From an uncultured virus (IMG/VR IMGVR_UViG_3300025009_000081) (lineage: Duplodnaviria; Heunggongvirae; Uroviricota; Caudoviricetes): a stretch of DNA of 20,000 nucleotides. Positions within the stretch are counted from its first letter, which is position 1; each line of letters opens with the position of its first letter. The translations under genes and the position numbers were made by a program. Positions 2,222 through 18,700 of this stretch are shown here, piece after piece. The notes beneath the pieces are model-generated. The model saw only the letters and a program-made list of their open reading frames with translations. It had not been told where the DNA came from and did no database searches. The stretch lies in the IMG/VR virus record IMGVR_UViG_3300025009_000081. One strand, written 5' to 3'.

Positions 2222-2614
2222 ATGAGTTATAGTGCTGCTCAAATATTTGATTTAATAGCCCCAGAGCTTTCTACAAATGCTTCCAAAGACGCATTTTTGC
2301 AGATGGCCTCAGAAGCCGTTGATTCTAACTTGCTAGGTAATAATGCTCCCAAAGCTGTAGCATACCGAGCAGCACATGACTTAACTCTTACAGTACAACG
2401 TAGCACCGGAGAAGGTGGTACGATTTCCCAAAAGAAAGAGGGTGAACTTTCTATCGCCTACCAGAACGAAATCAAAGGCTCAGATTACTGGGACCTTACT
2501 TGGTATGGCAAAGTTTATAAAAGCACACTTGCAAGCTCTGTTTGCTTCTTCGGAGTCACCGGAGGAACGGACACGGGTTATGATGTCAGCACAGCCGACC
2601 CTGGAGGTTGGTAA
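2222..2614 (+). CDS. Head-tail adaptor (DUF4054-like)
   Basis: Motifs IAPEL, AVAYRAAHDL, ISQKKEGELSIAY, LTWYGKVY; position after the capsid gene. Confidence 0.85.
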   Translation: MSYSAAQIFDLIAPELSTNASKDAFLQMASEAVDSNLLGNNAPKAVAYRAAHDLTLTVQRSTGEGGTISQKKEGELSIAYQNEIKGSDYWDLTWYGKVYKSTLASSVCFFGVTGGTDTGYDVSTADPGGW

Positions 2615-3090
2615 TGCAAGTGCAGTTTACAGAAAAAGATTTTGGATGGGAGAACTATCTGAAAGGCACCAACAAACTTGATGGTTGCAAGACCAAAGTT
2701 GGATTCCCTGATAATGGTGACATGAACAATGATCACACAAACTTGATTGCAAATATTGCTTTCATCAATGAATACGGAATGGTTTATGCAGATCACCAGA
2801 TTCCACCAAGACCTTTTATGAGACAGACACTCCAATACCCTGATTCCCAGAACAGCACACAAGAACTGATGAAAGAAGTCAGCAATGCAGTTCGTAAAGG
2901 CACAAGTTATCCCAGAGTAGCGATGTCTAAGATAGGTGATCACTACACCGGGGAAATCAGAAAGACTATTGACAGGCAGAACTTCACAAAATTGAGTAAC
3001 ATAACTATTGCCTTGAAAGGCAGTTCTAAAATACTTGTGGACACCGGAACCATGTATGGAAGCATCAAGCATGTGGAGGTAATCCCTTGA
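2614..3090 (+). CDS. Neck/tail-completion protein (HK97 gp10-like)
   Basis: ATG 2614 overlaps the upstream TAA (TAATG) with GGAGG upstream; motifs KVGF, IAFINEYG, IPPRPFMR, TIALKGSSKILVDTG.M..SI. Confidence 0.85.
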   Translation: MQVQFTEKDFGWENYLKGTNKLDGCKTKVGFPDNGDMNNDHTNLIANIAFINEYGMVYADHQIPPRPFMRQTLQYPDSQNSTQELMKEVSNAVRKGTSYPRVAMSKIGDHYTGEIRKTIDRQNFTKLSNITIALKGSSKILVDTGTMYGSIKHVEVIP

Positions 3091-3506
3091 GTTTGTTTTT
3101 CCCCATAACCATTACTGCGATTCGTAAAGTAGGGATGCTTGTCGAAGGCGTGTGGTCATCCGTGGGTTTTCTTCTGGACACCGATTCAGAGGTTATAAAC
3201 AACACCGATGGGGAAGCACTGATTGCAGAACAAAATGCAAGTGGAGACACTTTTTACATCAGAGGCTCGGTTCAACCAATCACAGGCAAGGACATGGACA
3301 GTTTACCCATAGGCCGATCAGACATTGGCCGGGTGAAACTCTACACCAGTACAAAACTTGAGGTTGGAGTAACAGGTTCAGACAACACTGGTGATTTAAT
3401 CCAGTATGATGGCCGGGTCTGGGAAGTCATTCAAGAGTCTACTTATGCAAACGGACTCATTGCACATTACAAATACATAGCAGAGTACAGGGAGGAAGTA
3501 GCATGA
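3087..3506 (+). CDS. Head-closure (stopper) protein with an apparent ~25-aa acidic insertion
   Basis: TTG start in a TTGA overlap, SD GGAGG at 3075-3079; motifs V.G.W, GSVQP, LP.G, KLYT, GDLIQYDGRVWEV, HYKY. Confidence 0.8.
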   Translation: MSLFFPITITAIRKVGMLVEGVWSSVGFLLDTDSEVINNTDGEALIAEQNASGDTFYIRGSVQPITGKDMDSLPIGRSDIGRVKLYTSTKLEVGVTGSDNTGDLIQYDGRVWEVIQESTYANGLIAHYKYIAEYREEVA

Positions 3507-4021
3507 CCTCAGCAACTCTGTTTTCAAAAGTTTATAGTTGGGTAAACCTGAGCATTAATGCAGACCTTAGTACACCCATAGTCATTATGAAGAGTTTCCA
3601 GGACATCTCACAACCAGCACAGACATTTATTTCTATCGATCCCATAGGCAGAATATCAAGAGTGGGTATGCCTTACAAATCAGCCCTTGACAACGATGCC
3701 GAGGGAACTATTAAAAACACATACAGGACTTCCCTAAGTATTAGACAGGTTGGTGGTGTTGGAGAGTACCTGCAAAAACTAATTGACAATTATGAACTTC
3801 AATCCGTGCAAGACAATCTTTATTCTGCTGGTCTTTCCCTTTCAACTTTTGGTGACATTATTTCTATGCCCTCATTAATTGGTGCAGGAAACTGGAAACA
3901 AGAGAAGTGGGTACCTGAGTGTGTAATGGAAGTAGTTTTCCTATTTGCTTCAGAGAATACAATCACATCTAACTGGATTGAAACAGTGGATATTACAAAC
4001 AATATAAATCAAGGAGACTAA
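3503..4021 (+). CDS. Tail terminator / neck protein
   Basis: ATGA overlap, SD GGAGG; 172 aa immediately before the sheath gene; C-terminal WIETVDI strand. Confidence 0.7.
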   Translation: MTSATLFSKVYSWVNLSINADLSTPIVIMKSFQDISQPAQTFISIDPIGRISRVGMPYKSALDNDAEGTIKNTYRTSLSIRQVGGVGEYLQKLIDNYELQSVQDNLYSAGLSLSTFGDIISMPSLIGAGNWKQEKWVPECVMEVVFLFASENTITSNWIETVDITNNINQGD

Positions 4022-4022
4022 C

Positions 4023-5357
4023 ATGAGTTCAATACCTTCAAGTATTGTCGAAGTTACAATAAGCAGGAATACAACTGCTGTAACACAGGCAGGGTTTGGA
4101 ATACCGGGTATCATTTCAGAATTTGCTACCAGTGTAACAACCGTTCCTTTTGACAGATATGCTTACTATGCAAGCCTGGCTGAGATGGCTGCTGCTGGCT
4201 GGTCCACTTCAAGCAAAGAGTATCTTGCTGCATCAGCAATCTTTGCACAGAACCCACACCCTGCACAGGTGCTCATTGGCAGAAAAGCCAGTACAGACAC
4301 CAGTTGGGCAGACGCTTTCAATGCTGTTCAAGCAGCACAGGAAGATTGGTACAGCTTCAGCATTATTCCTAAAGCCCAGGGAAAAATGGTTTTCAGTGCT
4401 GATCTAAGTGCTTCAAACCAAGTGGCAGTTACTCTGAATACTTTCAGTATCACACCAGTGTCTTTTTCACTTAGCCATTTGAACACAGCTAACTTGGTTA
4501 TTACAGCTATCGAAAGTGCATTGGCTGACAGCGATGCTTCACTTGATGCAACCGATACAACTAACCGTACAATCCTTGTTGACAAGTTTGCAACGGATAT
4601 TGACATCACCACTGCAACCGTTACTGGTGGATCAGCTGTGACTATCACAAAAACAAACACCAATGACAGTGACCTCAAAGCAGCAATGGCTTGGGCAGAA
4701 ACCCAGACCAAGTTGTTCTTTGCAAGTACCAATGATGTCAATGCTTGGGATGCAGTAGCAACTTCAGATGTGGGTTACTTTGCTAAGAACGCAGCTTACA
4801 CAAGAACTGTGAACTTCTTTCACACCACAGCAAACACCTACATTGAAGAAGCCATGCAGGGTGAGGAAATGCCTTTTGACCCAGGTGAATCAACTTTCTG
4901 CTACAAAACTCTTGCTGGAATCAGTGCTGATGTACTGACCACAACCAAGATCAATGCACTGCTTGACAAAAACTACAACATCTACAATACCGTTGGTGGA
5001 GTAAATATTACCAGAGATGGTCTTGCGGCTTCAGGTGAGAACATTGACATCATCAGAAATCTGGACTACTTGAACTCACTTATCCAGACAACGATCTTTG
5101 CAAACTTCCTGAACAACAGAAAGATTCCTTATGACGATTCCGGTATTGCTTCCATCGTTGCTCTTTTACAAGGGGCATTGGCTCAAGCAGCTAGAGAAGG
5201 CATCCTTCAGGAAAGCTCAATAGTTGTGACAGCCCCGAAGTATGCTGACATTTCCAGTCTGAACAAAACAAATAGAAATTTACCTGACATCACATTTACT
5301 GCATTGCTCTTAGGTGCAATCAGAAGTGTTGAGATTTCAGGAACAGTAACGGTTTAA
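4023..5357 (+). CDS. Tail sheath protein (DUF3383-like)
   Basis: SD AAGGAG; motifs IVEVTIS, AGFG.P, AIFAQNP.P....IGR, DWY, YKTLAGI, G...SGE.IDIIR..D, KIPYDDSGI, GAI..V.I.GTV. Confidence 0.93.
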   Translation: MSSIPSSIVEVTISRNTTAVTQAGFGIPGIISEFATSVTTVPFDRYAYYASLAEMAAAGWSTSSKEYLAASAIFAQNPHPAQVLIGRKASTDTSWADAFNAVQAAQEDWYSFSIIPKAQGKMVFSADLSASNQVAVTLNTFSITPVSFSLSHLNTANLVITAIESALADSDASLDATDTTNRTILVDKFATDIDITTATVTGGSAVTITKTNTNDSDLKAAMAWAETQTKLFFASTNDVNAWDAVATSDVGYFAKNAAYTRTVNFFHTTANTYIEEAMQGEEMPFDPGESTFCYKTLAGISADVLTTTKINALLDKNYNIYNTVGGVNITRDGLAASGENIDIIRNLDYLNSLIQTTIFANFLNNRKIPYDDSGIASIVALLQGALAQAAREGILQESSIVVTAPKYADISSLNKTNRNLPDITFTALLLGAIRSVEISGTVTV

Positions 5358-5371
5358 GGAGGAGAATAACA

Positions 5372-5803
5372 ATGGCTAGTGAAGTATATACATACAGGCC
5401 CAATCAAGTATCAGTCACCTGTAATGGTGTTGCTATTACTGGGTTTGCAGAAAACTCATTTATAAAAGTCACCAGAAATGGTGATCTCTTTGAAAGCATC
5501 AAGGGAGCCGATGGTACAGTTGATAGAGTCTACAAAGCCTCTACTGACTTCACTGTTGAACTAACATTGAAGCAAACAAGTCCAGCTAACTTATTGCTTC
5601 AGGGTTATGTAACTCTGGATGCTGCAAGCAATGCTGGTATCTTTGTTTTTAATGTAACAGACTCTTCTGGCAACTCTACTTTCACTGCTCCTCAAGCATG
5701 GGTCTCAAAAGATCCCGATGAAGAGTATGGAAATGGTGTGGGTGACAGAACCTGGACTATGAAAACAGGCAATGGGTGCATCAAAGTTACTGGTGGAAAC
5801 TAA
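5372..5803 (+). CDS. Tail tube protein (DUF3277-like)
   Basis: SD AGGAGG; motifs TY.P..V, ITGFA..SFI, GADG, LTLKQTSPAN..L, AWV.K.P..EYG, RTW. Confidence 0.92.
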   Translation: MASEVYTYRPNQVSVTCNGVAITGFAENSFIKVTRNGDLFESIKGADGTVDRVYKASTDFTVELTLKQTSPANLLLQGYVTLDAASNAGIFVFNVTDSSGNSTFTAPQAWVSKDPDEEYGNGVGDRTWTMKTGNGCIKVTGGN

Positions 5804-5829
5804 GTAATCATCAACAGGGGTAAGCAAAA

Positions 5830-6321
5830 ATGATACAACCAACAGATGTTGTAATAGACAATCTAAAATTCCAAATCTCAATGCTGGATGTGCTGGAAGC
5901 CATAGTTCTGGACAAAAGAGTCACAGAACTGGTCCTCCCAGTTATGTCTGCATTGTTACAGGGCAAGGAAGGGGAAGTTTCCCCGGAAGCCAGAGTAAAT
6001 GACCCAGAGAGCATGGCTAGACTCATGGATGGGATCCTAAATGCTCTTATGAAACTTGACAGTTCTTTTATGACCGAACTAACCCAGAAGCTCCTGAGAT
6101 GTGTGGTGACATTCATTGATGGCAAGGGTAATGTTCAGCTCACAGAAAGGAATGACATAAATACTGTATTTGCAGGTAAATTTCTGACTCTCTACAAGTT
6201 ATTGTTGAAAGTCATGGAGGTGAATAAATTCACCCCTTTCGCACTACTGGCTTCTGGATTCGTAATGCCAGGAACCAGTACCTTGCAAGGGGGCATGGAA
6301 AGCAAGCCAAAGATGAAGTAG
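5830..6321 (+). CDS. Tail assembly chaperone (lambda gpG analogue)
   Basis: Between tube and tape measure genes; helical; motif VFAGK...LYKL...V.EVNKF followed by a slippery site. Confidence 0.85.
   Translation: MIQPTDVVIDNLKFQISMLDVLEAIVLDKRVTELVLPVMSALLQGKEGEVSPEARVNDPESMARLMDGILNALMKLDSSFMTELTQKLLRCVVTFIDGKGNVQLTERNDINTVFAGKFLTLYKLLLKVMEVNKFTPFALLASGFVMPGTSTLQGGMESKPKMK
6216..6280 (+). promoter_or_regulatory. Programmed -1 ribosomal frameshift signal
   Basis: SD-like GGAGGTGA at 6216-6223, in-frame heptamer C CCT TTC at 6234-6240, hairpin at 6245-6280; the -1 frame is open 6228-6527. Confidence 0.8.
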
Positions 6322-6527
6322 GTGTAGGTAAAGTGGGGGATCTTTCCCCCATCATAGAAGATGAGTGGCCTTTTTGGAGGATTGTCATAGATGGCAAAAG
6401 GGATATATCAGAGGTGAGACAAATGGATTTAGAAGAAATCGACAAATACAACTCAATACTGACTATGCGTTCTGACTATGACACCGCTTTCCACAACTAT
6501 TACGAAAAAACAGCGGAGGCTAAGTAA
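6240..6527 (+). CDS. -1 frame extension of the tail chaperone (gpT analogue); predicted fusion about 232 aa
   Basis: Contains track ORF 6333..6527 (WPFWRIV...EVRQMDLEEIDKYNSIL); its frame stays open back to the slippery site and its stop overlaps the tape measure ATG. Confidence 0.75.
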   Translation, partial: RTTGFWIRNARNQYLARGHGKQAKDEVGVGKVGDLSPIIEDEWPFWRIVIDGKRDISEVRQMDLEEIDKYNSILTMRSDYDTAFHNYYEKTAEAK

Positions 6528-8392
6528 TGGCTTCATCTGAAGTAGTAAAAGAACTCGTTACCGTCCTTGGCTTCAAGGTTGACAAAAATGGGATTATCCA
6601 GGCCAGAAGCAGCGTAAACAGTTTCAAATCTTTTGCTATGAAAGCCTTTGCTGCTATAGGGGCTATACAGCTCGGTAGAGGGGCTTTCCAACTAACCTCA
6701 GACATAGACAATGCCAAAGCCTCGATGACGGCTCTGACGGGCAGTGGTGAGAAAACAGCAGAGATGATGACACAGCTCAGAGCTATGTCAGAACAACTCA
6801 GACCCTCGTGGACACAGTTCTCAGATGCAGCCAAGCAATTACTTGTCTATGGTGTGAGTGCTGAGAAGGTTGTGGAGATCACAAGACAACTGACTGATGT
6901 CAGCGGTGGAAGCAATGTCATGTTCAGCAGACTTGCTTATGCACTGGGACAGATCAACAGTGCTGGTATTCTCCGTGGACAGGATCTAAGACAACTTACT
7001 GAAGCCGGATTTAATCCACTTGAAACCATGGCAAAGGCTACAGGCAAGACTTCTGAATACTACAGAGAACTGATGAAGAAAAGTATGATTAGTTCTGCTG
7101 CTGTATTCAAAGCACTCCAGATAGAGACAAGTGCTGGTGGAAGGTTCTTTGGAGTTGCTGACAAGCAAGCCAAGACTCTGGGTGGTAGTATTGATGTACT
7201 TAGAAACAACCTGAAGAACATGAGTTATGACCTAATGAACATAGTGTCACCAAGTATTATCAGAATTGCCAACAGAATGAAAGAATGGGCAAAGACTTCT
7301 TTACTACCATGGATGAAAGCACACAAGGCAGAAATTAAGAAAATTGGAGATGACTTGTTTGGTATCTTGGAGAAACTAGGTCCGGCAATTTTGACTACTT
7401 TCAAATTACTGGGTCCTTTGCTTTTTCTTATGATAAACAACCTCCCAATAGTTATAAGTTTATGGATGGGTCTAAAAGCACTTGAATTGGTGAAATTTTT
7501 TATCTCTTTTGGTGTGGAGGCTATTATCCTGTCCAATAGTTTAAAAGGGCTAATTGCTGTAGTCTTCCCTGCTTTAGTTTCTTCCTTAGAAAGCATCTAT
7601 CTTGCTTTTCTTTATATAAAACAGGGAGAGTTTGCTGTTGTATTTGTGAACATGGCTAAAGGTATTGTTTTCCTAAAAAAGGCTTTTCTTGCATGGGCCC
7701 CAGTTGTACTACTTGGTGCTTTTGCCCTGATGACATTGTACTATTGGTGGACAATGTGGGATAGAATACAGAACCAAAGTAAGTACCAAGAAAACCTACG
7801 AGAAAGTGCAAAGGCTGTAAAAGAACTTACAGATTTAGAGATAGCACGATCAAAACTTTTCAAGACCATGAATCAACCCGGTGGAGCACTGAATGGTGGT
7901 GTGGATTACTTGCAGGAAAAAAGTCAACTGAAAAAATTAGATGATCAGATACATGAGGCCAAATTAAGAAAGCAGAATATGGACATACTTCTGGGTGAGA
8001 GTATGCAGCAGCCTTTCTTAGAGTCCACTGTTTTAGGTGGAGCCAATGATTATGTAAACAAGATGACTTTTGGGTTTGTTGATATAGCTAAGTCACTGGA
8101 TAATATGAAGACAAACAGAGCCAATCAGTACACCAGTTATCCCAATGGTGGATTTGACCCCAACAATGCACCCTTTGATCCCAGAACAAATGCACCTCTA
8201 CAAACACCCTTTAGGGACAGAACCCTTCCCGGAGTAGGTCCTACACTAAATCAGGCAACAACAATTAATGTGACAGCTAATGGCTTAACTCCTAAAGATT
8301 TTGAGAAGACCGTAGCTGACACGGTGAAAACAACAGTTATTAGCCAACACAGAGCGATGTGGGGAAAAGTAATTGGGGAGGCTAATCAATAA
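6527..8392 (+). CDS. Tape measure protein (621 aa)
   Basis: N-terminal ELVTVLGFKVD; tape-measure domain (LAYALGQI.SAG.LRGQDLRQLTEAG); hydrophobic central segments; TAATG coupling at both ends. Confidence 0.92.
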   Translation: MASSEVVKELVTVLGFKVDKNGIIQARSSVNSFKSFAMKAFAAIGAIQLGRGAFQLTSDIDNAKASMTALTGSGEKTAEMMTQLRAMSEQLRPSWTQFSDAAKQLLVYGVSAEKVVEITRQLTDVSGGSNVMFSRLAYALGQINSAGILRGQDLRQLTEAGFNPLETMAKATGKTSEYYRELMKKSMISSAAVFKALQIETSAGGRFFGVADKQAKTLGGSIDVLRNNLKNMSYDLMNIVSPSIIRIANRMKEWAKTSLLPWMKAHKAEIKKIGDDLFGILEKLGPAILTTFKLLGPLLFLMINNLPIVISLWMGLKALELVKFFISFGVEAIILSNSLKGLIAVVFPALVSSLESIYLAFLYIKQGEFAVVFVNMAKGIVFLKKAFLAWAPVVLLGAFALMTLYYWWTMWDRIQNQSKYQENLRESAKAVKELTDLEIARSKLFKTMNQPGGALNGGVDYLQEKSQLKKLDDQIHEAKLRKQNMDILLGESMQQPFLESTVLGGANDYVNKMTFGFVDIAKSLDNMKTNRANQYTSYPNGGFDPNNAPFDPRTNAPLQTPFRDRTLPGVGPTLNQATTINVTANGLTPKDFEKTVADTVKTTVISQHRAMWGKVIGEANQ

Positions 8393-9099
8393 TGCCAGGT
8401 TTAGTTTCAGGACTCTTAACACTTGCTCAAGGCGTACAGAACATACACCTTTTGTTTCCCGACACCTACAGTGTGGGAGCAATAAAGTTTGACCTTATTC
8501 TTGCGGAGTCTCACAGCTTTGAGAACAGTGTAACCTCACATGCACTCCAAGATGGAACGGTAATCTCAGATCACATCTACAACAAATTACAGACTGGCAC
8601 ATTAAAAGGTATGGTTTCCAACTACAGTATCATTAAAAACTTTGGGATACTAACTGGTGTGTTCAACGAAACCTCTCTGATGTCATTGAGCAATCCTTTT
8701 GGCATACCTAATAAAATGAAAAATACCTATGATGCTTTCAAGAAGCTCTGGCAGTCCAGAGAGCTTGTTACCATAGTCACTATGTTGCAGTCCTACACCG
8801 ATGTAGCCATTACTTCCATCAATATAGATAGGGATGGAGACAGTGGACACTCACAGACCTTTGAGGTGAGTTTCCAACAGATCAAGAAAGTGGTGTTCCA
8901 GAAAGACCTGTCACAGTTTGTGGGTCCCAATGTACCCAACACCACACTAACAGATGTGCAGAAGCAAGCAGCTACAAAAGCAGCAGTTGCAAAGACAGCA
9001 GTTGCAGAAAAAGTAACAGTGGACTGGGCAACTGCTACTAATGGTAACACAGTAGATACTCCAGTGGTTGAAACAAGTAATAGAAATTGGTGGGAATAA
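8392..9099 (+). CDS. Baseplate organisation / tube initiator protein (Dit-like N-terminal domain)
   Basis: Motifs FD....ESH.....VTSH..Q.G..ISDHI, L.G.VSN, LVTIVT....Y....ITS, F..SFQQI; follows the tape measure gene. Confidence 0.8.
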   Translation: MPGLVSGLLTLAQGVQNIHLLFPDTYSVGAIKFDLILAESHSFENSVTSHALQDGTVISDHIYNKLQTGTLKGMVSNYSIIKNFGILTGVFNETSLMSLSNPFGIPNKMKNTYDAFKKLWQSRELVTIVTMLQSYTDVAITSINIDRDGDSGHSQTFEVSFQQIKKVVFQKDLSQFVGPNVPNTTLTDVQKQAATKAAVAKTAVAEKVTVDWATATNGNTVDTPVVETSNRNWWE

Positions 9100-9452
9100 T
9101 GGATAGGATACCTGTTTTAAAACTTACTTCTTCTGACAACGTGCAGACAATCATATTTGATTATCAGTCCGTTACTCTGAGATTTTACTGGAATGTAAGG
9201 GCTAACTGCTTTTTCCTTGATGTAACCGACACCAACAGCAATACCTTGTATGGGATCAAAGTGGTTCCAAACTGGCCACTACTACAATCCTATAAAGGTC
9301 ACACAGACTTCCGGGGTGATATAATTGTTCTCCCCAACACCAACAATTTTCCCACAGAAATCACATGGGATAATTTTGGCACCAATTGGTTTCCCTGGTT
9401 TATGAGCACGGCAGAACTTGTGCAGTGGGAGGACTACTATGGCTTGGCTTAG
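9099..9452 (+). CDS. Baseplate plug-like protein
   Basis: ATG 9099 in a TAATG overlap; motifs LRFYWN.R...F.LD and GIKVVPNWPLL; position before the hub gene. Confidence 0.75.
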   Translation: MDRIPVLKLTSSDNVQTIIFDYQSVTLRFYWNVRANCFFLDVTDTNSNTLYGIKVVPNWPLLQSYKGHTDFRGDIIVLPNTNNFPTEITWDNFGTNWFPWFMSTAELVQWEDYYGLA

Positions 9453-10326
9453 AAAAGCAGAACTTAGTATCAATGGCCTCAATCTACTCACTGATGAAAA
9501 CCAGAAAGATGGACTTGACATGGAGTTTGACATTGTCCGCAACATAGACTTTACAAAGTCCACAGCTAACTTTAAGGTTTACAACGCCAGTGCTTTTGTG
9601 AGAAAAGAAATACTCAAGGAAGCCAGCAGCATTGTTTTCAAAGCAGGTTATGCCGATGAGACCGATGCCTTTGGTGAAATATTTAGTGGCTTTGTCTGGA
9701 CATCGTACTCATATCTTGAGGACAACAACTGGGTAACTGAAATAGAAGCAATGGATCAACTGGATTCAGGAATATACAACAAGACCTTCAGGAAAGGCAC
9801 GGCTATACTGGACATAATTACCTATGTCAACGGCATACTTGGGTATAGTGACAAGATTGTGGGTTCACAGTACCTAAACGGAATCACAATGAAGCAAGGT
9901 TTTAATAACCCCGGCTACCTCAGAGGCTATTTGAAAGCCTGTTCTGATGTACTGCTCAGCAAAGGGCTATATTTGTTTGTGGACTTGGGGAGCATATTCA
10001 TTGTGGACAAGGGAAACATTGGTGATCTTATGAGACTCACAATTCCCCTGGATTACAACAGTGGACTCAAGAGCATAGAGGACATAACCCAAAACAAGTT
10101 TTTTAAAACAATCAAACCAAGAAAAACACCATTGAAGATTCCTATTGATGAAAGTCCCAAGATAAGATTTAATTGCTTGCTTGATCCAAGACTTGTACCT
10201 GCTGGTGGGATTAAAATAAACATAGGGAACCCATCCTTTGATTGGACCTACATGATTGAGGAATTGAAGTTTCATGGTGACAACTTTGGTGGTGACTTTG
10301 ACTGCACTGGGGAGGCCACTTTATGA
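9439..10326 (+). CDS. Baseplate hub protein (T4 gp27 / Mu gp44-like)
   Basis: ATG 9439 after GGAGG; motifs FDI.R, A.FKVYN, FKAGY, IFSG, CLLDPRL..G, Y.IEEL.F.GDNFGG.F. Confidence 0.82.
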   Translation: MAWLRKAELSINGLNLLTDENQKDGLDMEFDIVRNIDFTKSTANFKVYNASAFVRKEILKEASSIVFKAGYADETDAFGEIFSGFVWTSYSYLEDNNWVTEIEAMDQLDSGIYNKTFRKGTAILDIITYVNGILGYSDKIVGSQYLNGITMKQGFNNPGYLRGYLKACSDVLLSKGLYLFVDLGSIFIVDKGNIGDLMRLTIPLDYNSGLKSIEDITQNKFFKTIKPRKTPLKIPIDESPKIRFNCLLDPRLVPAGGIKINIGNPSFDWTYMIEELKFHGDNFGGDFDCTGEATL

Positions 10327-11009
10327 GTGACTTCAGTATAGCCGATCACCTGGATACATGGATCAAGAGCCAGTTCAGAGCAGTACACACCGTTCTTCCG
10401 GGCAGAATAAATGCTTATCACGGGCATGATGTGAGAAAGGCTGATGTGGATTTGCTTATGACATTACCTGTTGGGGAAAACAACTTTGTGGAAGTCAATC
10501 CACTGCTAGACATACCAGTTATTTTTCCTGGCAGTGCAAGATTCAACTTTGTGTATAGCCTTCAGAAAGGTGATCCTTGCCTGATTCTGTTCTGTGAGAA
10601 TGATATTGGTAACTACTTAGGGATTCCCCTGGAATCTGGAAGTATCAATTTGGCAAGTGCTAAGAAAGTGGACCCTGCAAACAATTTGAAGTTCAAACTC
10701 CAACATGCAGTATGCTTGCCTTTTTCCATAAACCCTGATGCTTACATACCCACAGCAGCACCAAGTAGCATTGTAGAGAATGATGGGGTAATTGAGATCA
10801 ATGGCAATACAAAGCAGTTTGTGACCCATGCAGAATTAAGTTCTCTATTGGCAACTTTCATGACAGCTCTTAATTTACACACACATGCTGTTACAGCTCT
10901 AGCTGCCTCAACTGGGCCTATGACAACACTTATTGATTATCCAACACTTGTACCCATATCTTTGGATATTAGTACAGCAACAACAACAAAAGTGAAGGCT
11001 GGTGTATGA
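10323..11009 (+). CDS. Baseplate spike (Gp138-like N-terminal OB-fold, HxH tip motif)
   Basis: Motifs VHTVLPGRI, L.DIPVIFPG, LQKGDPCLILFCENDI; LHTH at 10875-10886. Confidence 0.85.
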   Translation: MSDFSIADHLDTWIKSQFRAVHTVLPGRINAYHGHDVRKADVDLLMTLPVGENNFVEVNPLLDIPVIFPGSARFNFVYSLQKGDPCLILFCENDIGNYLGIPLESGSINLASAKKVDPANNLKFKLQHAVCLPFSINPDAYIPTAAPSSIVENDGVIEINGNTKQFVTHAELSSLLATFMTALNLHTHAVTALAASTGPMTTLIDYPTLVPISLDISTATTTKVKAGV

Positions 11010-11371
11010 AAAACTTTTATCTAACACAAACTCCTCCCAGTGAATATGATCTCACTGTTGTGAACAACAACCTTGCCTTTACCACAAACAACACAGACTA
11101 CATGGCACAGAAGATAATCAATGCCCTGAAAACTTACAAAGGTGAGTTCTTCCTAAACTCCACTCTAGGTGTACCTTACTTCACAGACATTCTAAAGAAA
11201 GGTGTGGACATGGTAACAGTCAAAGCAATTCTTGTGGCAGCGGTTGCAGGCATACAGTTTGTAAAAGAAGTGGTGAGTCTGGAAATGTCCTACGACAGTG
11301 AAAACAGAATAATTTCAGGAGACCTCACTGTGCTCCTAAACAATGACGAACTTTTGAGCCTGGAGATTTAG
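11006..11371 (+). CDS. Sheath initiator / gp25-like baseplate wedge protein
   Basis: Motifs AQKI...LKT.KGEFFLN...GVPYF..IL.K and YD..NR; between spike and baseplate J genes. Confidence 0.82.
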   Translation: MKNFYLTQTPPSEYDLTVVNNNLAFTTNNTDYMAQKIINALKTYKGEFFLNSTLGVPYFTDILKKGVDMVTVKAILVAAVAGIQFVKEVVSLEMSYDSENRIISGDLTVLLNNDELLSLEI

Positions 11372-11372
11372 A

Positions 11373-12842
11373 ATGGGAACTTATGTAACAGAAAGTGGAC
11401 TTATTATAAAAACTCTTGCTGAAATTGTAACTGAGTATGAAGCCTACTTCAAAACAATCCTGGGAAATGACATTGACACCGATCCCACGGGTACTATTGG
11501 ACAACTCATCGCAATGCTTTCTAAGAGAGATAGTGACCTCTGGCTTGCTGCTCAAGAGATTTACACATCAAGAGACCCAAGTCAGGCCACAGGCACAAGC
11601 CTTGATGGAATCAGTGCTGAGACCGGGGTAACCAGACTTGATGCAACACCCACAACTGTGGATAGTGTTTGTCACTATGGTGATGAAGGTGTAGTTGTTC
11701 CGGCCAATACAAAGGTTAGAAAGACAAGTGCAACTCTTACTTTTTCACTTGACACCGATGTAACTATTTCTGAGACCGCTTGCAATGATGCTTACTTGCT
11801 TCCCAATGCCGATCCCACAACTCCTACAGCCTATGCAGTAGTTCTGGCAGGAGTGACCTATAGCTTTACAACAGCCTCGACTTCAAAAACAGATCTTATA
11901 AACGGACTTGTGGGTGTTATAAATGCAGGTGCTTTTCCCGGAACTGCTGTACTTGACAATGCAGTGCATACCACTGGTGTGACTTTAAGAGTTTATGACC
12001 TGGCAAATGCTTTCTCAATAACCTACGATTCCATTTTTGACAACACCAAGTTTGGAACCATTGGTTCTTACACCTGTGACGAAGACGGTGTCAATGCAGT
12101 GGCTACAGAAAACTTGAACACAATCATCAATCCGATTTCAGGATGGGATTATGTGCTTAACCTCGATGCCGGAGCAACGGGCAGACTTGTAGAGACCGAT
12201 GCAGCTCTCAGAATACGTAGGGCACTTGCACAGGGCACAAGCAAAGCAACTGAAGAAGCAATCAGACAATACATACTAAACAATGTAGAGACCGTGGCTA
12301 CTTGCAGTATTCAGTCCAATAGAACCAATGCAACCGTGGGAAGCCTGCCTGCCAAGAGTTTTGAAGTAGTAGTAGATGAGAGTGCAGTTGCAGCAGATGT
12401 GGCACAGGCCATCTGGGAAAGTGCTCCTGCTGGTGTGGAATACTACGGAACCGAATATGTTGATATAACAGACACTCAGGGTGGAACACAAAGGATTCAC
12501 TTCAGCCGTTCAGTACCTCTTTACATCTGGGTTAAGGTTCTCAAGAACGCCTTTAGTGAAGGTGAGACCTATCCTGCTGATGGTGATGCTCAAGTAAAAC
12601 AAGCCATACTGGATTGGTCTGAAACCGCTTTTGAACTAGGCAAGGATGTAATTCCTCTAAGACTGGCAGTGCCCATATATTCCATTCCAGGTGTGGGTGA
12701 TATTCAGATCTCCCTATATAGTGACCTCAACTCAGGTGCAACTCCTGGACCCGGTGACTATGCAACCACAGACATCACTGTTAGTGCTACTCAGATAGCC
12801 ACCTTTGCAATCGCAAGAATGACAATAGGAGTGATACCTTGA
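11373..12842 (+). CDS. Baseplate J-like wedge protein
   Basis: Motifs G.IIKTL.EI, P....GQLI, P.QATG.SLD, I.NPISGW..V.N, G...ETDA.LR.R, LP.KSFEVVV, VAQAIW...PAG...YG, I.FSR. Confidence 0.92.
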   Translation: MGTYVTESGLIIKTLAEIVTEYEAYFKTILGNDIDTDPTGTIGQLIAMLSKRDSDLWLAAQEIYTSRDPSQATGTSLDGISAETGVTRLDATPTTVDSVCHYGDEGVVVPANTKVRKTSATLTFSLDTDVTISETACNDAYLLPNADPTTPTAYAVVLAGVTYSFTTASTSKTDLINGLVGVINAGAFPGTAVLDNAVHTTGVTLRVYDLANAFSITYDSIFDNTKFGTIGSYTCDEDGVNAVATENLNTIINPISGWDYVLNLDAGATGRLVETDAALRIRRALAQGTSKATEEAIRQYILNNVETVATCSIQSNRTNATVGSLPAKSFEVVVDESAVAADVAQAIWESAPAGVEYYGTEYVDITDTQGGTQRIHFSRSVPLYIWVKVLKNAFSEGETYPADGDAQVKQAILDWSETAFELGKDVIPLRLAVPIYSIPGVGDIQISLYSDLNSGATPGPGDYATTDITVSATQIATFAIARMTIGVIP

Positions 12843-14251
12843 GCACCATAACAATACCTTGGGAAACCAGTTTAACAACAGAAGCTCAGTATGGGTACTC
12901 TCTGTGTGTTTTCAATGATAAGTTATACCTTGCCACAGGCAACAGTCATCTCTTGTATGTGTACGATTCATTCACTTGGCAAGTAGCTAACATTTTCTCC
13001 CTGGATGTAGACATAAAATGCCTGTGTGTTTACAAAGGCAAACTTTACATAGGCACAGGTGGTTATGGAAAGATTTATGTATATGATGGCAACACTTATG
13101 AGCTTTCCTATGACATGGGATCACCCCTAGTTTCTTCTCTGTGTGTTTACAATGATAAACTCTATGCAGGTATGGGATCCACAATTCCTGCCAGAAGTTA
13201 TGTATGGTGCTTTGATAACACCAACTGGGTGCTCTCTTTAACTGCTTCTCCTGAAACCGCAATAGGGGATATGTATGTTTACCAAGGTAGACTGTTTGCA
13301 GGAACATATCCTAGCGGTATAATTTATGTCTTTGATGATAGCACATGGGTGATCTCACAAGATACCCCTGAAGATGCCATAACCTGTTTTTGTGAATTTG
13401 AGAACAGACTATATGCAGGTACGGGAGCTAATAATAATCTTTATGTTTTGACAGGTGGTGTGTGGAGCATAGCTTATACCCTGACAGATGAAGTACAGAT
13501 ATATTCTATGCTTGTTTACAATGGCAGAATGTTTATAGGTACTTGCTTGGGTGGGAAAGTTTTTGCTTATGATGGCACAACCATGGAATTAAGCTATGAC
13601 TCCGATGACACTTTCATATTCTCCCTTTGTATTTACCAGGATAAGTTATTTTCAAGCAGTGGAACCTATGGTGGCCTTAGTGATGTCAGAAGATATGCTG
13701 AAGAACTGATAACTGCCACCGGGGACATGTCTAAGATCACAGATTACAGTTACAACATGCAGTACCTTTTGGAGCAATACAAAAACAGTCCTAAATTAGT
13801 AGGGCTTATAAACTCATCAAACTTTCAGGCAGAAAAGATTGAGAGAGCACTTTATGAACTCAAGGAATTGTTTTACCTGAACACAGCAGAAGGCACTCAG
13901 CTTGACATCATTGGCAACAACATATTTGGACTACCCAGACTGGGGCTGCCAGATTACACCTACAGACAGGCTATTGCAGCCAAGGCTATACAGAGTAACT
14001 CAGGTACACCAGAGAGCATCATAGGGGCTATTAGAAGCCTACCCGATGCCACCTTTGTGGAGTTTCACAACAAGTTTCCAGCAGAACATGCGGCTTATAT
14101 TGTTGTAACCGATGCAGCTTTTAGTCAGAGTTGGTTAGAGAGTATTTCCCCGGCTGGAGTGGAGTGTGTCAGTGGAGGGTACTTGATCCTCAGTGATGGC
14201 AACTACCTAACTCTAGCAGATGGATCAAAGATTATATTACAGGAGAATTGA
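12839..14251 (+). CDS. Fusion: N-terminal 7-bladed beta-propeller plus DUF2612/gpI-like baseplate wedge domain
   Basis: TTG start in a TTGA overlap after AGGAG; seven ~40-aa repeats, then LLEQYKNSPKL, L.TAEG.QLDIIG, G..R....D..YR, NSGT.ESI, PAGV. Confidence 0.85.
   Translation: MSTITIPWETSLTTEAQYGYSLCVFNDKLYLATGNSHLLYVYDSFTWQVANIFSLDVDIKCLCVYKGKLYIGTGGYGKIYVYDGNTYELSYDMGSPLVSSLCVYNDKLYAGMGSTIPARSYVWCFDNTNWVLSLTASPETAIGDMYVYQGRLFAGTYPSGIIYVFDDSTWVISQDTPEDAITCFCEFENRLYAGTGANNNLYVLTGGVWSIAYTLTDEVQIYSMLVYNGRMFIGTCLGGKVFAYDGTTMELSYDSDDTFIFSLCIYQDKLFSSSGTYGGLSDVRRYAEELITATGDMSKITDYSYNMQYLLEQYKNSPKLVGLINSSNFQAEKIERALYELKELFYLNTAEGTQLDIIGNNIFGLPRLGLPDYTYRQAIAAKAIQSNSGTPESIIGAIRSLPDATFVEFHNKFPAEHAAYIVVTDAAFSQSWLESISPAGVECVSGGYLILSDGNYLTLADGSKIILQEN
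12854..13697 (+). repeat. Seven protein-level beta-propeller blade repeats
   Basis: SLCVFNDKLYLATG, CLCVYKGKLYIGTG, SLCVYNDKLYAGMG, DMYVYQGRLFAGTY, CFCEFENRLYAGTG, SMLVYNGRMFIGTC, SLCIYQDKLFSSSG. Confidence 0.9.
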
Positions 14252-14252
14252 A

Positions 14253-15710
14253 ATGGCAAATAGTATTTTATCAGAACTCACAGAAGTCACAAGTCTTGCA
14301 GCAACAGACCTGCTATACCTTGTCCGGGGAACGGGCACGGGCTGTGACAAAAAGATTCAGCTTTCTAACTTCGGTGGAGCCATGGGCTTCTTTGGAAGTG
14401 CTTACACACTGGCAAACATTGGAGGCACGGTAAATGTGCATGTACCCAGTGCAAGTGATCCCACAATCAACTTTGCAAACACAGCAACGGGCTATGGAGC
14501 CCATGGCCTTTTGATTGGTATTGACAAGACCACAGGTGTAGCTTATATCAACCAGCAAGAGAACTTATCATTACTAATAAAAACCAATAACACTACAAGA
14601 ATAACTATTACTGCTGCTGGTGTTGTGGAGGTGGGCAGCTCACTTACTTGTGTGGGGAACATAACTGTAAACACAAACAAGTTTTTTGTAAATGCTACTT
14701 ATGGGAATATTGGTATAGGGGCTATACCTAATGCTGACTCCGATGACCAAGGCTACAACATTGCCCGGATAGGAGCATCAGGGAGCCTTTATGCAACTAC
14801 TTCAGGTGAAAGTATGATCCTTGCCTCTAATTCCAGGTACGTAGGATCAGCCACATTCAAAAGGGATGTGAGTGGCTATGCCTCTTATTATCAACAGATC
14901 AATGGTACCCATCTTTTTGGAGTATCAGAAGCCACTGCTGCTGCTGACTCTGCTATAACTTGGTCTACTGTAATGGACATTCACAGGGGTGCTACACATG
15001 GTGTGACAATCACAGGCAATCTGAACACTTCTGATGGAATTATAAGTACAGTTCCAGATACAGATGCTTGGAGAGCTTTTGTAGGTACTACATCAGGAGC
15101 TCTGACAACAACAAACAGAGTATTGATGAATCTAAATCACTCTACAAGTGATACAATGGCAGATGGCTTTGGAACAGCCATTGACTTACAAGTTAATGCA
15201 GGCACAATATCTAGGATTTCTGCAAAAAGAAATGGGGCTGACAATACGGGAACACTGAATTTAGGTGTAGCCGATGCTGGTGCTATGTATGATGTAGTAA
15301 CAATAACTTATGCAAAAACAGTTGTTGTTTCAGCAGCAGTTCAGTTTAGTGGCTATGGAGCAGGCACAGCCACCTTTGATGCCAGTGGAAACATCACTTC
15401 GGTTTCTGACATGAACAAGAAAAACTACATCAGTGATTTCACTGGTGGGCTTGAATCTATCATGGGAATAAAACCAATCAATTATATGTGGAAACCAGAA
15501 ACAGGATTGGACACAGTAAATGTGTACACAGGTTTCAGTGCACAGAATGTAAAAGAGTTTATACCTGAAGCCGTCTTTGGTACCGAAGGCAATTATTCAT
15601 TATCAGATAGACCTATTATAGCTGCCCTTGTGAATGGCATGAAAGAACAACAACTGGTTATTGAAAACCAAACAAAAAGAATTGAACAACTTGAAGCATT
15701 GCTAAGCTAA
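14253..15710 (+). CDS. Tail fibre/spike 1 (485 aa) with C-terminal peptidase S74 intramolecular chaperone
   Basis: ATG 14253 after AGGAG; Gly/Thr/Ala-rich beta repeats; SDMNKKN..., IKPINYMWK, GFSAQNV....PEAV and a terminal coiled coil. Confidence 0.88.
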   Translation: MANSILSELTEVTSLAATDLLYLVRGTGTGCDKKIQLSNFGGAMGFFGSAYTLANIGGTVNVHVPSASDPTINFANTATGYGAHGLLIGIDKTTGVAYINQQENLSLLIKTNNTTRITITAAGVVEVGSSLTCVGNITVNTNKFFVNATYGNIGIGAIPNADSDDQGYNIARIGASGSLYATTSGESMILASNSRYVGSATFKRDVSGYASYYQQINGTHLFGVSEATAAADSAITWSTVMDIHRGATHGVTITGNLNTSDGIISTVPDTDAWRAFVGTTSGALTTTNRVLMNLNHSTSDTMADGFGTAIDLQVNAGTISRISAKRNGADNTGTLNLGVADAGAMYDVVTITYAKTVVVSAAVQFSGYGAGTATFDASGNITSVSDMNKKNYISDFTGGLESIMGIKPINYMWKPETGLDTVNVYTGFSAQNVKEFIPEAVFGTEGNYSLSDRPIIAALVNGMKEQQLVIENQTKRIEQLEALLS

Positions 15711-15729
15711 CAAAGCAGAGGAATTTATT

Positions 15730-18700
15730 ATGGCAAAAATGGTAGCAGATCTTGTAGAAGCAACGATACTTGACAAAGACGACCTCCTCTATGTAGTCAG
15801 AGGCACAAGCACTACATCGGGCAAAAAGATGAAAGGCTCTCAGTTCCTAATGGAAGTCCTAACGGCTTCGGGCAACACAGGGATTGATCTGAGCTCAAAG
15901 ACATCAGACCTGCTTGTTGAAATGACAGGTGCTGATGCTGGACCCAAGACTTTTGTATGTACAGCAGCAGAGTACCTGCCCTTGGGCCGAAGATTCATCT
16001 TTGCAAACAATGGCAGTGGAACAACGGTTTACACACTCACACTACCTGACCTCACAACCCACACCGTTAATCCTGGTGATACAATAACTATCATCTGTCT
16101 TGCTGCTGGAATCATTGTAGAGAAGAACATCCTGGGAAATGCCCTAACAGCCACAAGGTTACAAACTGCACGAACAATAAATGGCACCAGCTTTGATGGC
16201 AGTGCAAATATTACAGTCACAGCAGCAGCAGGAACCCTTACCGGAGCGACCCTGGCTTCTAATGTAACAGCAAGTTATCTCACCTCTGTGGGTATTCTCA
16301 CAGCGGTACAAGTAGATAATGTAAACATTGATGGAAACACAATAGCTTCCACCAGTGGTGATCTTAACATAAACCCCTTTGCTGGCTCAAAGATACTTCT
16401 GGATGCAACCATTTCCGTGGACGCTGGTGTAATCACAGGTGCAACAAGTATAACCTCTACTACTTTTCTGGGAGACCTCAATGGCACAATAAACACAGCC
16501 ACCACAGCAGCTACCCAATCACAGGGAGACAACAGCACCAAGGTAGCCACAACAGCTTATGTCGATGCCGCTGTACTAACTGAGGACTTCTGGACACGAA
16601 CATCCACCACAGTCACTCTAAAGACATCTGGAGACACCTTGAACCTCAGTGGTGACTTTCAAGTAGCCACAAGCAAATTCACAGTTGCAGCACTCACAGG
16701 AAACACGGCTATTTATGGGGACCTTGCAGTTGCTACAAACAAGTTTACAGTGGCAAGTGCAACGGGCAACACAGTTGTAGCTGGCACTTTTCATGGAGCC
16801 GGGGACTTTGACATTGCCACCAATCTATTCCAGATTGCTGCTGCTACGGGAAACACACTCATTGCAGGTACTCTGGGAGTTACTGGAGCCATTACAGGCA
16901 ACTTGACAGGTAATTGCTCTGGGACAGCAGCAACGGTCACAGGAGCAGCCCAAACAAGTATCACAAGCCTTGGCACTCTTACAGCACTTCAAGTTGACAA
17001 TGTGAACATAAATGGAGACACAATCTCTAACACAACAGGTATTTTATACCTGACCCCTTATACAGGCAATGCAGTTGTAATTGACGGGTACTTCAGCTTT
17101 GATGGAACCATACTTACAGGCATCACAGATTCAAACATGACCATAACTGCTCCTACTGGCAGAAACATTGGTATAGAGGGAGTGACCTTTGATGGTGGCG
17201 TAGTGGGAGGAATAAGCTCTCTGGGAGTCACAGGTACAAGAGTTACAGCAGGTTTCTTTACCGATCTCACAATAACCAATGCAATCTCAGGAAGTATTAC
17301 AGGTAATGCTGCAACAGCTACTAAACTTGCAACAGCCAGAGCGATTAATGGAGTTGACTTTGATGGCAGTGCAGCTATAACAGTCACAGCAGCGGGTAGT
17401 ACACTCACAGGTACAAGTCTGAACTCTACTATTGTAAGTTCAAGCCTGACTTCAGTGGGTACTCTCTCAAGCCTAGCAATGGGAGGGAACATTGCACTGG
17501 GTTCAAATTACCTTTCTGGTGATGGAGGTAATGAAGGCTTACAGATAGATGCAAGTGGAAACGCTACATTCAGTGGTGTTATAAATGGAACAAGTGCTTC
17601 TTTATCTAGTTCTATTGCTTGTACGACTATTTCAAGTTATTTCAGCCTGAATTTGACAAACACTATGGCAAGGCCAATAAGTATCAAACACATAACATCA
17701 GGTACACAAACCGATGGCTTTGGTGTAGGCATCAGCTATGCCACACAAACAGGTGCAGGGGATCCTAACATAGTTGGTTATCTTGGTTTTGTAAGAGCGG
17801 GAGCCGATGGGACCAGTGATCTTGTAGGACTTCCTTCTACAACAGGCACACCCACAGAGAGATTTAGAGTAAGCAGTGCTGGTGTACTTTCCAGTATCAC
17901 TTCCATTGGTGTAACTGGTGCAAGAATAGCCAATGCTTTCTTTACTGATTTAGCAGTAACAAACGCTATTGCAGGTTCTATTACAGGAACGGCAGCAAAG
18001 GCTACAAATTTAGTTGGTGGAAATAGTACAACTCTTTTAGGTTCTATTGGCTACCAATCTAACACAGACACCACAACAATGCTTGTACCCAATACAACAA
18101 GTACAAAGAAATTCCTAAGAATGACTGGCACAGGCACAAATGGGGCTGTTCCTGTATGGGACACAATTGTTGATGCTGATATTCCTAATCTTACAGGTAA
18201 GACATATAATGGCTTAACACTAACTGCTGCTAGTGTAGGCTTTACTATTGCTGGAGGGACTACAAGCAAAACACTTACTATAAACAACACCCTTGCACTC
18301 TCAGGTACAGATTCAACAGTTATAACGTTACCAGCAACAACGGGAACAGTGGCTTTAAATAACCAGACATTTTATTTGGGTTCTACATCCATTGCCATTA
18401 ATAGGGCCTCAGCTTCTATTGCACTTACTGGAATCACAAGTATTGATGGATCAAGTGCAAGTTGTACAGGTAATGCAGCCACAGTTACCACAAATGCAAA
18501 TCTCACAGGAGTAGTAACATCCACAGGCAATACAACGGCCATAGCATCAGGTGCAATAAAAGCTAATATGCTTCAGAGTGCAGCAAGTGATTTGGGTGCA
18601 GCCAATGTAACCATTGATTTGAGTAATACCAATGGAGCTTATGTTACCAATGTGACTATTGATGGAACTTACACAGGCACGTTTTCAGGGAACCTCACTG

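Follow-up and report, generated by a model that had tools for sequence, protein, structure and literature searches.

A candidate plug-and-socket system for fibre docking at the baseplate, and possibly at the neck, of an uncultured contractile-tailed phage

Head-closure protein, wedge subunit and fibres at the locus

The DNA analysed here is a stretch of 20,000 nucleotides (the window) from an uncultured virus of the Caudoviricetes (IMG/VR record IMGVR_UViG_3300025009_000081). The window lies in a 26.4-kb virus record, and its sequence recurs in an IMG/VR contig of 29 kb and a metagenome contig of 106 kb. Pfam, PHROGs and the open reading frames (ORFs) identified the 20-kb window as encoding a structural module of Pam3/E217/PB1 type, from a phage with a contractile tail. 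All module genes are encoded on the + strand, and the nearest cultured genome in gene order is Alteromonas phage vB_AmeM_PT11-V22 (Myoalterovirus; hereafter V22). The subject of this study is a putative fibre docking system made of two short three-repeat peptides, one in the head-closure protein and one at the end of a baseplate wedge subunit, and of an N-terminal domain common to the two fibres. Its components are the following:

3087..3506, + strand: head-closure (head-completion, 'collar' or stopper) protein, 139 aa, TTG start; SPP1 gp16/E217 gp28/Bas63 HC family
3165..3242, + strand: 26-residue insertion (aa 27-52) at the tip of the first beta-hairpin of the head-closure protein; proposed neck socket
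12839..14251, + strand: peripheral baseplate wedge subunit, 470 aa, DUF2612; after the gp6/J-like gene and before the fibres
14177..14248, + strand: C-terminal 24-residue tail of the wedge subunit, GYLILSDG / NYLTLADG / SKIILQEN; proposed baseplate socket
14253..15710, + strand: fibre 1, 485 aa; docking domain aa 1-40 (14253-14372); C-terminal S74 chaperone
15730..19998, + strand: fibre 2; docking domain aa 1-39 (15730-15846); extends past the window

The head-closure protein was identified from sequence, fold and gene order. The profile of its alignment (A1) matched the PDB entries 'Head-tail joining protein' (E = 6e-13), the 'Head-closure protein' of Bas63 and Sf14 (E = 4.7e-12 and 9.1e-11), the Pam3 connector (E = 1.2e-5) and SPP1 gp16 (E = 0.033). 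The protein also matched PHROG 939 (E = 7e-16), and Pfam E217_gp28 scored 18.4 bits, under its cut-off of 27. The AlphaFold2 (AF2) model had a predicted local distance difference test score (pLDDT) of 77.4. Foldseek showed that its fold is the small beta-barrel of a neck hexamer subunit, with Bas63 HC (9mt4_E, E = 6e-5) as the top match, followed by 9cc7_E, 9c39_E and the Pa193 collar; PhiTE, Sf14, SPP1 gp16 and the Pam3 connector were also among the matches. The order DUF4054, Neck1, head-closure, terminator and sheath fits this assignment. At E ≤ 1e-3, 435 homologues came out of an exhaustive HMMER search. A tblastn search of 50,697 phage records with the head-closure protein gave no match, or E ≥ 2 at best, and word-index searches with this protein and with the wedge C-terminal domain returned only the queries themselves and the wedge homologue P0153.

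The insertion is rare in this family. Its length was measured as the number of residues between the columns of residues 26 and 53 in an alignment of the 150 best of the 435 homologues. The hairpin tip had 0-4 residues in 148 of these 150, and 26 residues in the window protein and in homologue P0004 only, so the peptide is an insertion, as had been proposed in an earlier note on this DNA. The first 24 residues (3165-3236) form the units GFLLDTDS / EVINNTDG / EALIAEQN. P0004 (142 aa, 42% identical to the window protein) has the three units NLVDGNG / NEIVSGNG / ENITAISE, with G at the turns; its contig stops before the baseplate genes. E217 gp28 has lateral extensions at residues 28-38 and 56-66, of which the former corresponds to the insertion region (PMC10329688), and in Bas63 HC an 'external facing loop (F9-N37)' is the contact of the collar ring (PMC12609058). 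A hexameric head-closure ring is reported for E217 (PMC10329688), Pam3 and Bas63 (PMC12609058). Because the counterpart region is lateral or external in E217 and Bas63, the insertion would face the exterior of the neck.

Other head-closure homologues carry additions of different kinds. P0120 has a C-terminal extension of six strand-turn units (a 51-aa tract), which may point to independent acquisition of sockets by head-closure proteins. P0040 has two Big_2 Ig-like domains, P0149 (767 aa) has an N-terminal region of ~680 residues with the head-closure domain at its end, and P0038 has an extra C-terminal domain of ~190 residues. The head-closure protein thus seems to be a frequent display platform for appendages. 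The phage bearing P0004 shows a second difference at the neck, a 345-aa tail terminator (L003, 4638-5675) that is twice the length of the 172-aa terminator of the window.

The wedge subunit consists of a Kelch/beta-propeller-like N-terminus (~aa 1-290), a DUF2612 domain (~aa 300-445) and the C-terminal tail. Pfam PF11041 (DUF2612) matched aa 308-365 with 37.7 bits against a cut-off of 23.5, and the PDB matches were phi92 gp146 (E = 2.2e-7) and the Pam3 wedge gp23 (E = 0.0077). The closest homologue, P0153 (177 aa, 49% identical), lacks the propeller and keeps the three-unit tail. The AF2 model of the C-terminal domain, based on four sequences, was poor (pLDDT 58.5) and gave little information on the tail. 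The N-terminal region (12839-13720) contains the repeats 'KLYIGTG', 'KLYAGMG', 'RLFAGTY' and 'RLYAGTG', with Kelch/WD40/propeller matches below the Pfam cut-offs. It is missing from P0153, V22 gp22 (227 aa) and Pam3 gp23, and may form a beta-propeller exposed at the rim of the baseplate.

The start of fibre 1 is ATG 14253, with AGGAG 7 nt upstream; the ATG at 14220 was rejected as a start. The S74 chaperone of fibre 1 was recognised by Pfam PF13884 (33.5 bits against a cut-off of 22) at aa 386-442, numbered on the 486-aa translation of 14250-15710, which begins one codon before ATG 14253. Fibre 1 also matched the ICA domain of myelin regulatory factor in the PDB (E = 0.0044). The full length of fibre 2, read from a longer contig (L010), is 1462 aa; there are exactly two fibres in the module, and small genes of other kinds follow fibre 2.

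The N-termini of the two fibres are related beyond doubt. BLASTP aligned them with 17/36 identical residues (47%, E = 1e-5), and the hand count of 19/40 in the earlier note was reproduced, with 19 of the first 40 residues invariant and one gap (alignment A2). The consensus of this domain, called the plug here, is roughly M-A-..-L-.-E-.-T-....-D-L-L-Y-.-V-R-G-.....-K-K-I/M-....-F. At least six fibre bodies that differ from one another start with it (fibre 1, fibre 2, P0156/P0159, P0160, L012 and SeKF_13). The tblastn search of the 50,697 phage records with both fibre N-termini gave no match, or E ≥ 2 at best; the fibre-start alignments found no relative in the genome-contig scan and nothing new in the viral-contig scan. 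Two observations concern the rest of the fibres. Fibre 2 contains internal duplicated segments at aa 131-210 and 517-564 ('...ATRLQTARTINGTSFDGSANITVTAA...' and '...ATKLATARAINGVDFDGSAAITVTAA...'), which match PHROG 1833 and 37852 twice. Fibre 1 aa 285-336 and fibre 2 aa 642-698 have a segment in common (E = 0.024).

Three-repeat peptides, complex model and recurrence in other phages

The two peptides were found as the earlier note had described them. Translation of 3165-3236, within the ORF 3087-3506, gives GFLLDTDSEVINNTDGEALIAEQN, and translation of 14177-14248 gives GYLILSDGNYLTLADGSKIILQEN, the final 24 residues of the ORF 12839-14251. They align without gaps, with 7/24 identities and a BLOSUM62 score of 42. 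The three 8-residue pseudo-repeats were borne out: among offsets 4-12, self-similarity was positive at offset 8 only (+0.56 for the neck peptide, +2.0 for the wedge peptide) and negative at all others. The unit pattern is polar, aromatic/aliphatic, L/I, hydrophobic, x, x, D/N, G. Among 6,071 24-mers from 20 proteins of the window, each of the two peptides picks the other as its best match; the second-best matches score 21 and 27. The 24-mer comparison and a profile scan found no further socket-like peptide in the other window proteins, and a Pfam search up to E ≤ 10 matched neither the repeat peptide nor the fibre N-terminus to any family.

A baseplate-tail profile was built from four baseplate tracts and scanned against 1,020 sequences. 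Its top match outside the training set was the insertion of P0004 (E = 0.007). When the profile was built without any window sequence, the E values were 1.5e-4 for the window wedge tail, 0.004 for the P0004 insertion and 4.7 for the window insertion.

The modelled complex combined the whole head-closure protein (alignment A1) with residues 1-80 of fibre 2 in three copies (alignment A4). The median score was 0.71 (runs 0.71, 0.54 and 0.74) and the best of three controls scored 0.00. At least 89% of the contacts agreed between runs, and the partner pLDDT was at least 71. In calibration, 116 of the 157 solved complexes reached the mark passed here, as did 2 of the 215 mismatched pairs; these counts hold only roughly for our own shallow alignments and the 3 + 1 chain set. 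The confident interface joins neck residues 17, 19 and 25-50, that is, the insertion, to fibre residues 1-6, 8, 21, 23 and 25-31 of all three copies.

The contacts in the model follow the repeat. Tyr21 of copies 2, 3 and 1 contacts L29, I37 and L45, the third position of each unit. Fibre residues 5, 8, 23 and 31 also move by 8 along the insertion from copy to copy: residue 8 contacts neck residues 31 and 39, residue 23 contacts 32 and 40, residue 31 contacts 31/32 and 39/40, and residue 5 contacts 29/30, 37/40 and 45/46. This pseudo-three-fold arrangement agrees, for the neck insertion, with the idea in the earlier note that each unit serves one fibre protomer. The prediction for the pairing of the neck protein with fibre 2 thus came out positive (0.71 against 0.00) with the insertion as the interface, and its scope is that pairing. 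The model supports binding of the neck insertion to the N-terminal trimer of fibre 2 but is no demonstration of it.

PDB sequence searches with the fibre N-termini, the six-unit tract of P0120 and the SeKF_13 fibre found nothing meaningful; the window 24-mers themselves were unsearched. Recall of a solved homologous complex is unlikely to explain the pass, because the plug and the P0120 tract have no sequence relative in the PDB by these searches; memory at the level of the fold may still have contributed.

Sockets next to plugs were found in other phages as well. L009, picked up by scanning with the fibre-start alignment, has a baseplate of a different, P2-like type. There, the gpI-type protein (267 aa) has six units at its end, which would suffice for two trimers, and 19 bases after it begins a fibre with 53% identity to fibre 1 over its first 40 residues. 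A tblastn search with this gpI-type protein found no socket-bearing cultured phage. In V22, the wedge protein gp22 has GILVDNDG / NEIVDNNG / NNIVVGG, 28 residues before its C-terminus. It matched the units profile with E = 3e-6 to 8e-6, as the best of 245 ORFs in one scan (E = 3e-6) and as the sole match below 0.2 among the 647 ORFs of 80 kb. V22 gp24 (1430 aa, two genes downstream of gp22) was the best match of the six-member plug profile (E = 0.002-0.0035). The 80,000 of 92,760 V22 bases that were scanned contain a single socket and a single plug-bearing fibre, and the head-closure protein of V22 (122 aa) lacks the insertion. Sockets and plug-bearing fibres each number two in the window, and these numbers fit a second site there.

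A differing wedge end goes with a differing fibre start in L006, L007, Pseudoalteromonas H101, Vibrio D93 and K354. Overall, socket and plug were found together in three loci and were both absent in five, and two or three loci were discordant or unclear. The co-occurrence, which the earlier note had expected across phage genomes, is suggestive. Two pattern matches, L005 (a secretin-like gene of a Chlamydiia metagenome-assembled genome) and L015 (a small Bacteroidetes protein), were dropped after their ORFs were read.

Proposed docking mechanism and rival explanations

We propose a plug-and-socket attachment of fibres. The plug would be the ~40-residue N-terminal domain common to both fibres, and the socket a single-chain peptide of three 8-residue strand-turn units threaded along the axis of the fibre trimer. 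Every unit would take an equivalent position against a different protomer, so that one monomeric virion protein could hold a three-fold fibre. One socket would be the C-terminal tail of the peripheral wedge subunit, in the usual place and analogous to the docking loops of Mu gp48 and E217 gp45. The other would be the insertion at the outward hairpin tip of the hexameric head-closure protein. The virion may then carry six fibres of one kind on the baseplate and six of the other on the neck, without a dedicated collar gene; this is the simplest picture because there are six head-closure and six wedge subunits per virion.

Docking of a fibre at the baseplate through the wedge tail is probable, with indirect support from adjacency and co-occurrence, and by analogy the tail is best read as a docking element of the Mu/E217 type in a terminal, three-repeat form. 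Docking of a fibre at the neck socket, which draws on the complex model, is about an even bet. The whole two-site statement is given a probability of roughly 0.5. Gene adjacency suggests that fibre 1 sits on the wedge; fibre 2 is the one used in the neck model. We infer the presence of neck fibres on virions, the binding by the wedge tail and the allocation of fibres to sites. The interpretation in the earlier note is partly supported: those of its proposed tests that were run, on the insertion, the neck complex and the co-occurrence, turned out in its favour, whereas its description of the neck peptide as a copy of the wedge tail is weak and its general appeal to gpI-like wedges is imprecise.

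Several results count against the two-site docking proposed here. A score of 42 was reached in 4 of 300 shuffles of both proteins, two unrelated pairs among the 190 window protein pairs also score 42, and BLASTP of the neck against the wedge protein gave E = 0.048, level with a chance segment. The pairwise similarity of the two peptides is by itself not beyond chance. The DNA alignment of the stretches coding for them showed no relatedness, so a recent duplication was ruled out as their source. The four-tract baseplate profile scored the window neck insertion at only 3.7 bits (E = 4), which makes the claim of a 'copy' weak, though the homologous insertion of P0004 reached E = 0.007. The family link of the window neck peptide draws on the homologous position in P0004, the period-8 pattern and the complex model, and not on the score of its sequence. 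Modelled as monomers, the head-closure protein shows the insertion as a low-confidence coil (pLDDT 56-59) between strands 22-25 and 54-64, and the wedge C-terminal domain shows the tail as a low-confidence coil or short strands. Fibre 2 with the neck protein was the single pairing modelled. Among the other phages, the link of V22 gp24 to the plug is by profile only (BLASTP of fibre 1 against gp24 gave no alignment). In Salmonella phage SeKF_13 a plug was recognised both by BLASTP (E = 2e-5) and by profile (E = 1e-4 to 5e-4), with no profile-detectable socket, and L012 has the plug and no socket within 20 kb. The co-occurrence sample is small, non-independent and partly chosen through the motifs under comparison.

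The most serious competitor, to which we give about one chance in three, has the baseplate carry both fibres, in the manner of Sf14, Bas63 and A-1(L), one on the wedge tail and the other on a second wedge site. The neck insertion would then be an elongated 'wing' hairpin with another role, such as contacts to the tail terminator, the top sheath ring or the capsid, and the likeness of the peptides would reflect a common strand-turn design and not a common partner. Sf14 gp52 and gp53 share an N-terminal 'baseplate-binding region' and are both drawn on the baseplate (PMC11821841), and in Bas63 wedge 2A D2 carries the STF and a gp9-like platform on wedge 1 carries the LTF (PMC12609058). The plug itself has relatives among Kolesnikvirus fibre starts (BLASTP E = 2e-5), and Sf14 gp53 resembles it weakly (tblastn E = 0.2; profile E = 0.29). 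Both lateral extensions of E217 gp28 contact the gateway protein (PMC10329688), the hairpins of Pam3 clasp the terminator, and the window insertion is not significantly like the baseplate tails, as noted above. However, the window offers no second socket-like peptide in its other proteins and no LTF-platform-like gene between the wedge and the fibres. In the model, no part of the neck protein other than the insertion lies inside the fibre trimer, the 8-residue register is exact and the controls score 0.00; the six units of P0120 sit C-terminally, a place impossible for a wing hairpin. The Sf14 and Bas63 interfaces that serve as precedents are themselves poorly resolved, and ~120 C-terminal residues of Bas63 wedge 1 are disordered (PMC11821841, PMC12609058).

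Chance likeness is improbable. Here the insertion would be a flexible loop that is tolerated and has nothing to bind, with the complex score an artefact of pairing short beta-prone repeats with a small beta-rich trimer. The shuffles, the two tied pairs and the low pLDDT of the insertion would all fit this, and the complex score is the model's own confidence, obtained with alignments and a chain set that differ from those of the calibration. But the three 8-residue units are retained in P0004 at 42% identity, where they give the best non-training match to the baseplate-tail profile, both peptides show the period of 8, all three controls scored 0.00, and socket and plug recur as neighbours in unrelated baseplates. 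We consider it slightly less probable still that both sockets take the same plug, with the neck as a transient assembly or storage site or with either fibre at either site (mixed virions). Cross-binding is plausible because the plugs are similar (47% identical over 36 residues) and the sockets degenerate, and a single pairing was modelled; no datum favours transience, though, and six neck and six wedge subunits give a simple 6 + 6 for two fibre genes.

A wider reading of the two-site proposal is more tentative. The socket and the ~40-residue plug may be a portable attachment standard that has moved between the wedge C-terminus, a P2-like gpI protein, and an insertion or C-terminal extension of the head-closure protein. 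A whole fibre would then have been re-sited from the baseplate to the neck by 26 inserted residues and no collar gene, and attachments in the Ounavirinae, where the wedge-1 C-terminus is disordered, may work likewise. In these phages, the C-terminal halves of Sf14 gp50 (L023, 3621-4478) and of the SeKF_13 wedge protein (L019, 5953-6801) show, by eye, short hydrophobic strands and N/G/D-rich turns whose period is longer, at 9-13 residues. These halves might be divergent sockets for two fibres; the profile does not detect them. In L012 (9980-13549), which is part of a 102-kb metagenome contig and belongs to a different virion type, a plug-like N-terminus heads a 1189-aa fibre with hundreds of residues of G-Y-S/collagen-like repeats.

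The question matters since the attachment of a three-fold fibre to a one-copy site of a six-fold baseplate is resolved in few phages (Mu, E217) and is unresolved in the imaged phages Sf14 (PMC11821841), Bas63 (PMC12609058) and phi92. If the proposal is true, a recognisable socket-plug pair would let annotators assign fibre positions and would account for the exchange of fibre modules between unrelated tails. It would also give laboratory phage work a handle of 24-26 residues for placing fibres or other trimeric cargo at set positions of the virion, and a head-closure socket would be a very economical route to neck fibres, unlike dedicated collar and whisker proteins.

Known docking systems and the other genes of the window

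The nearest counterparts are the docking loops of Mu and E217. In Mu, a 'fiber docking loop' of gp48 (residues 133-155, 23 residues) is held by the N-terminus of the gp49 fibre (PMC11915804), and in E217 the 'fiber attachment loop' of gp45 (residues 76-123) lies inside the trimeric N-termini of gp46 (PMC10329688). As proposed for the window, a single stretch of the wedge protein (BW3 gp48 in Mu) is held by the N-termini of the fibre trimer and the wedge gene is followed by the fibre gene; the length in Mu is similar. The earlier note had called the C-termini of gpI-like wedges the usual fibre site, which is imprecise, because the docking element of Mu and E217 is an internal loop. In the window it is C-terminal (sub-terminal in V22) and built of three 8-residue pseudo-repeats. 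The E217 fibre starts with a coiled coil, whereas the fibre start of the window is predicted to be beta-rich, and the window has a second such element in the neck protein. No PDB chain matches the fibre N-termini or the P0120 tract (the window 24-mers were not among the queries), and the window system would for that reason be an analogue, not a member, of the Mu/E217 docking loop systems.

Pam3 gp23/gp24 resembles the window in its homologous DUF2612-type wedge that anchors fibres (E = 0.0077) and in a similar minimal myophage architecture. In contrast, Pam3 has 12 fibres, and disulfide bonds from two cysteine-rich regions hold an alpha-helical fibre N-terminus; the window has no such cysteine arrangement and another fibre start.

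Appendages at the head-tail junction of myophages are known from the collar and whiskers (wac) of T4, the collar-whisker of Bas63/Sf14 and the neck fibres of A-1(L) on gp5 (gp82). The collar ring of Bas63 contacts the same outward loop of a homologous head-completion protein (PMC12609058). These phages use dedicated collar, adaptor or neck-ring proteins together with whisker proteins, whereas the proposed anchor of the window is an insertion of 26 residues in the head-closure protein itself, and its fibre would be an ordinary tail-fibre paralogue.

The Ounavirinae (Bas63 STF/LTF, Sf14 gp52/gp53, Kolesnikvirus 'proximal tail fiber') likewise have tandem fibres with a common short N-terminus and a syntenic wedge gene upstream, and the Kolesnikvirus start aligns with fibre 1 at 37% identity over 52 residues (E = 2e-5). 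They differ in that both fibres are placed on the baseplate and the wedge proteins have no profile-detectable three-repeat peptide. V22 is the closest cultured phage in synteny, with the three-unit peptide on gp22 and the plug on gp24; the difference is its single socket, single plug-bearing fibre and short head-closure protein without insertion. The passages found in the V22 paper (PMC7289586) do not discuss attachment. The crAss001 'fibre docking hubs' and the phi92 structure were set aside as precedents, as they concern something else.

Fibre docking loops and neck fibres are thus known kinds of structure. Apparently new are the socket of three repeats, the fact that in unrelated baseplates it is paired with a defined N-terminal domain of the fibre, and its presence in a head-closure protein; no description of a repeat docking peptide of this kind was found in the open-access literature searched.

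The other annotated genes of the module are as follows:

97-819, + strand: cement protein
837-1763, + strand: major capsid protein
2222-2614, + strand: DUF4054 adaptor
2608-3090, + strand: Neck1
3503-4021, + strand: tail terminator (172 aa)
4023-5357, + strand: sheath
5372-5803, + strand: tube
5830-6321, + strand: chaperone
6527-8392, + strand: tape measure
8392-9099, + strand: Dit-like tube initiator
9087-9452, + strand: plug (a tail gene, not the fibre N-terminal domain)
9418-10326, + strand: hub
10323-11009, + strand: spike
11006-11371, + strand: gp25-like
11373-12842, + strand: gp6/J-like wedge (PHROG 6, E = 3e-43)

The interval from capsid to sheath (2222-4021) holds DUF4054, Neck1, head-closure and terminator genes. 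There is no dedicated collar, adaptor-ring or whisker gene between the capsid and sheath genes of the 20 kb read from the ~106-kb contig.

Two further likenesses were observed among the window proteins. The gp25-like sheath initiator (aa 28-51) and the DUF2612 domain of the wedge subunit (aa 325-348) share a 24-mer match with a BLOSUM score of 47, the third highest of the 190 protein pairs, which may be a common helix of the wedge core bundle or chance. The cement protein (aa 59-146) and the sheath (aa 123-216) have a common domain of ~90 residues (BLASTP 30/94 identical, E = 5e-12). This appears to be an insertion domain swapped between the head decoration protein and the outer domain of the sheath, and both copies would be surface-exposed.

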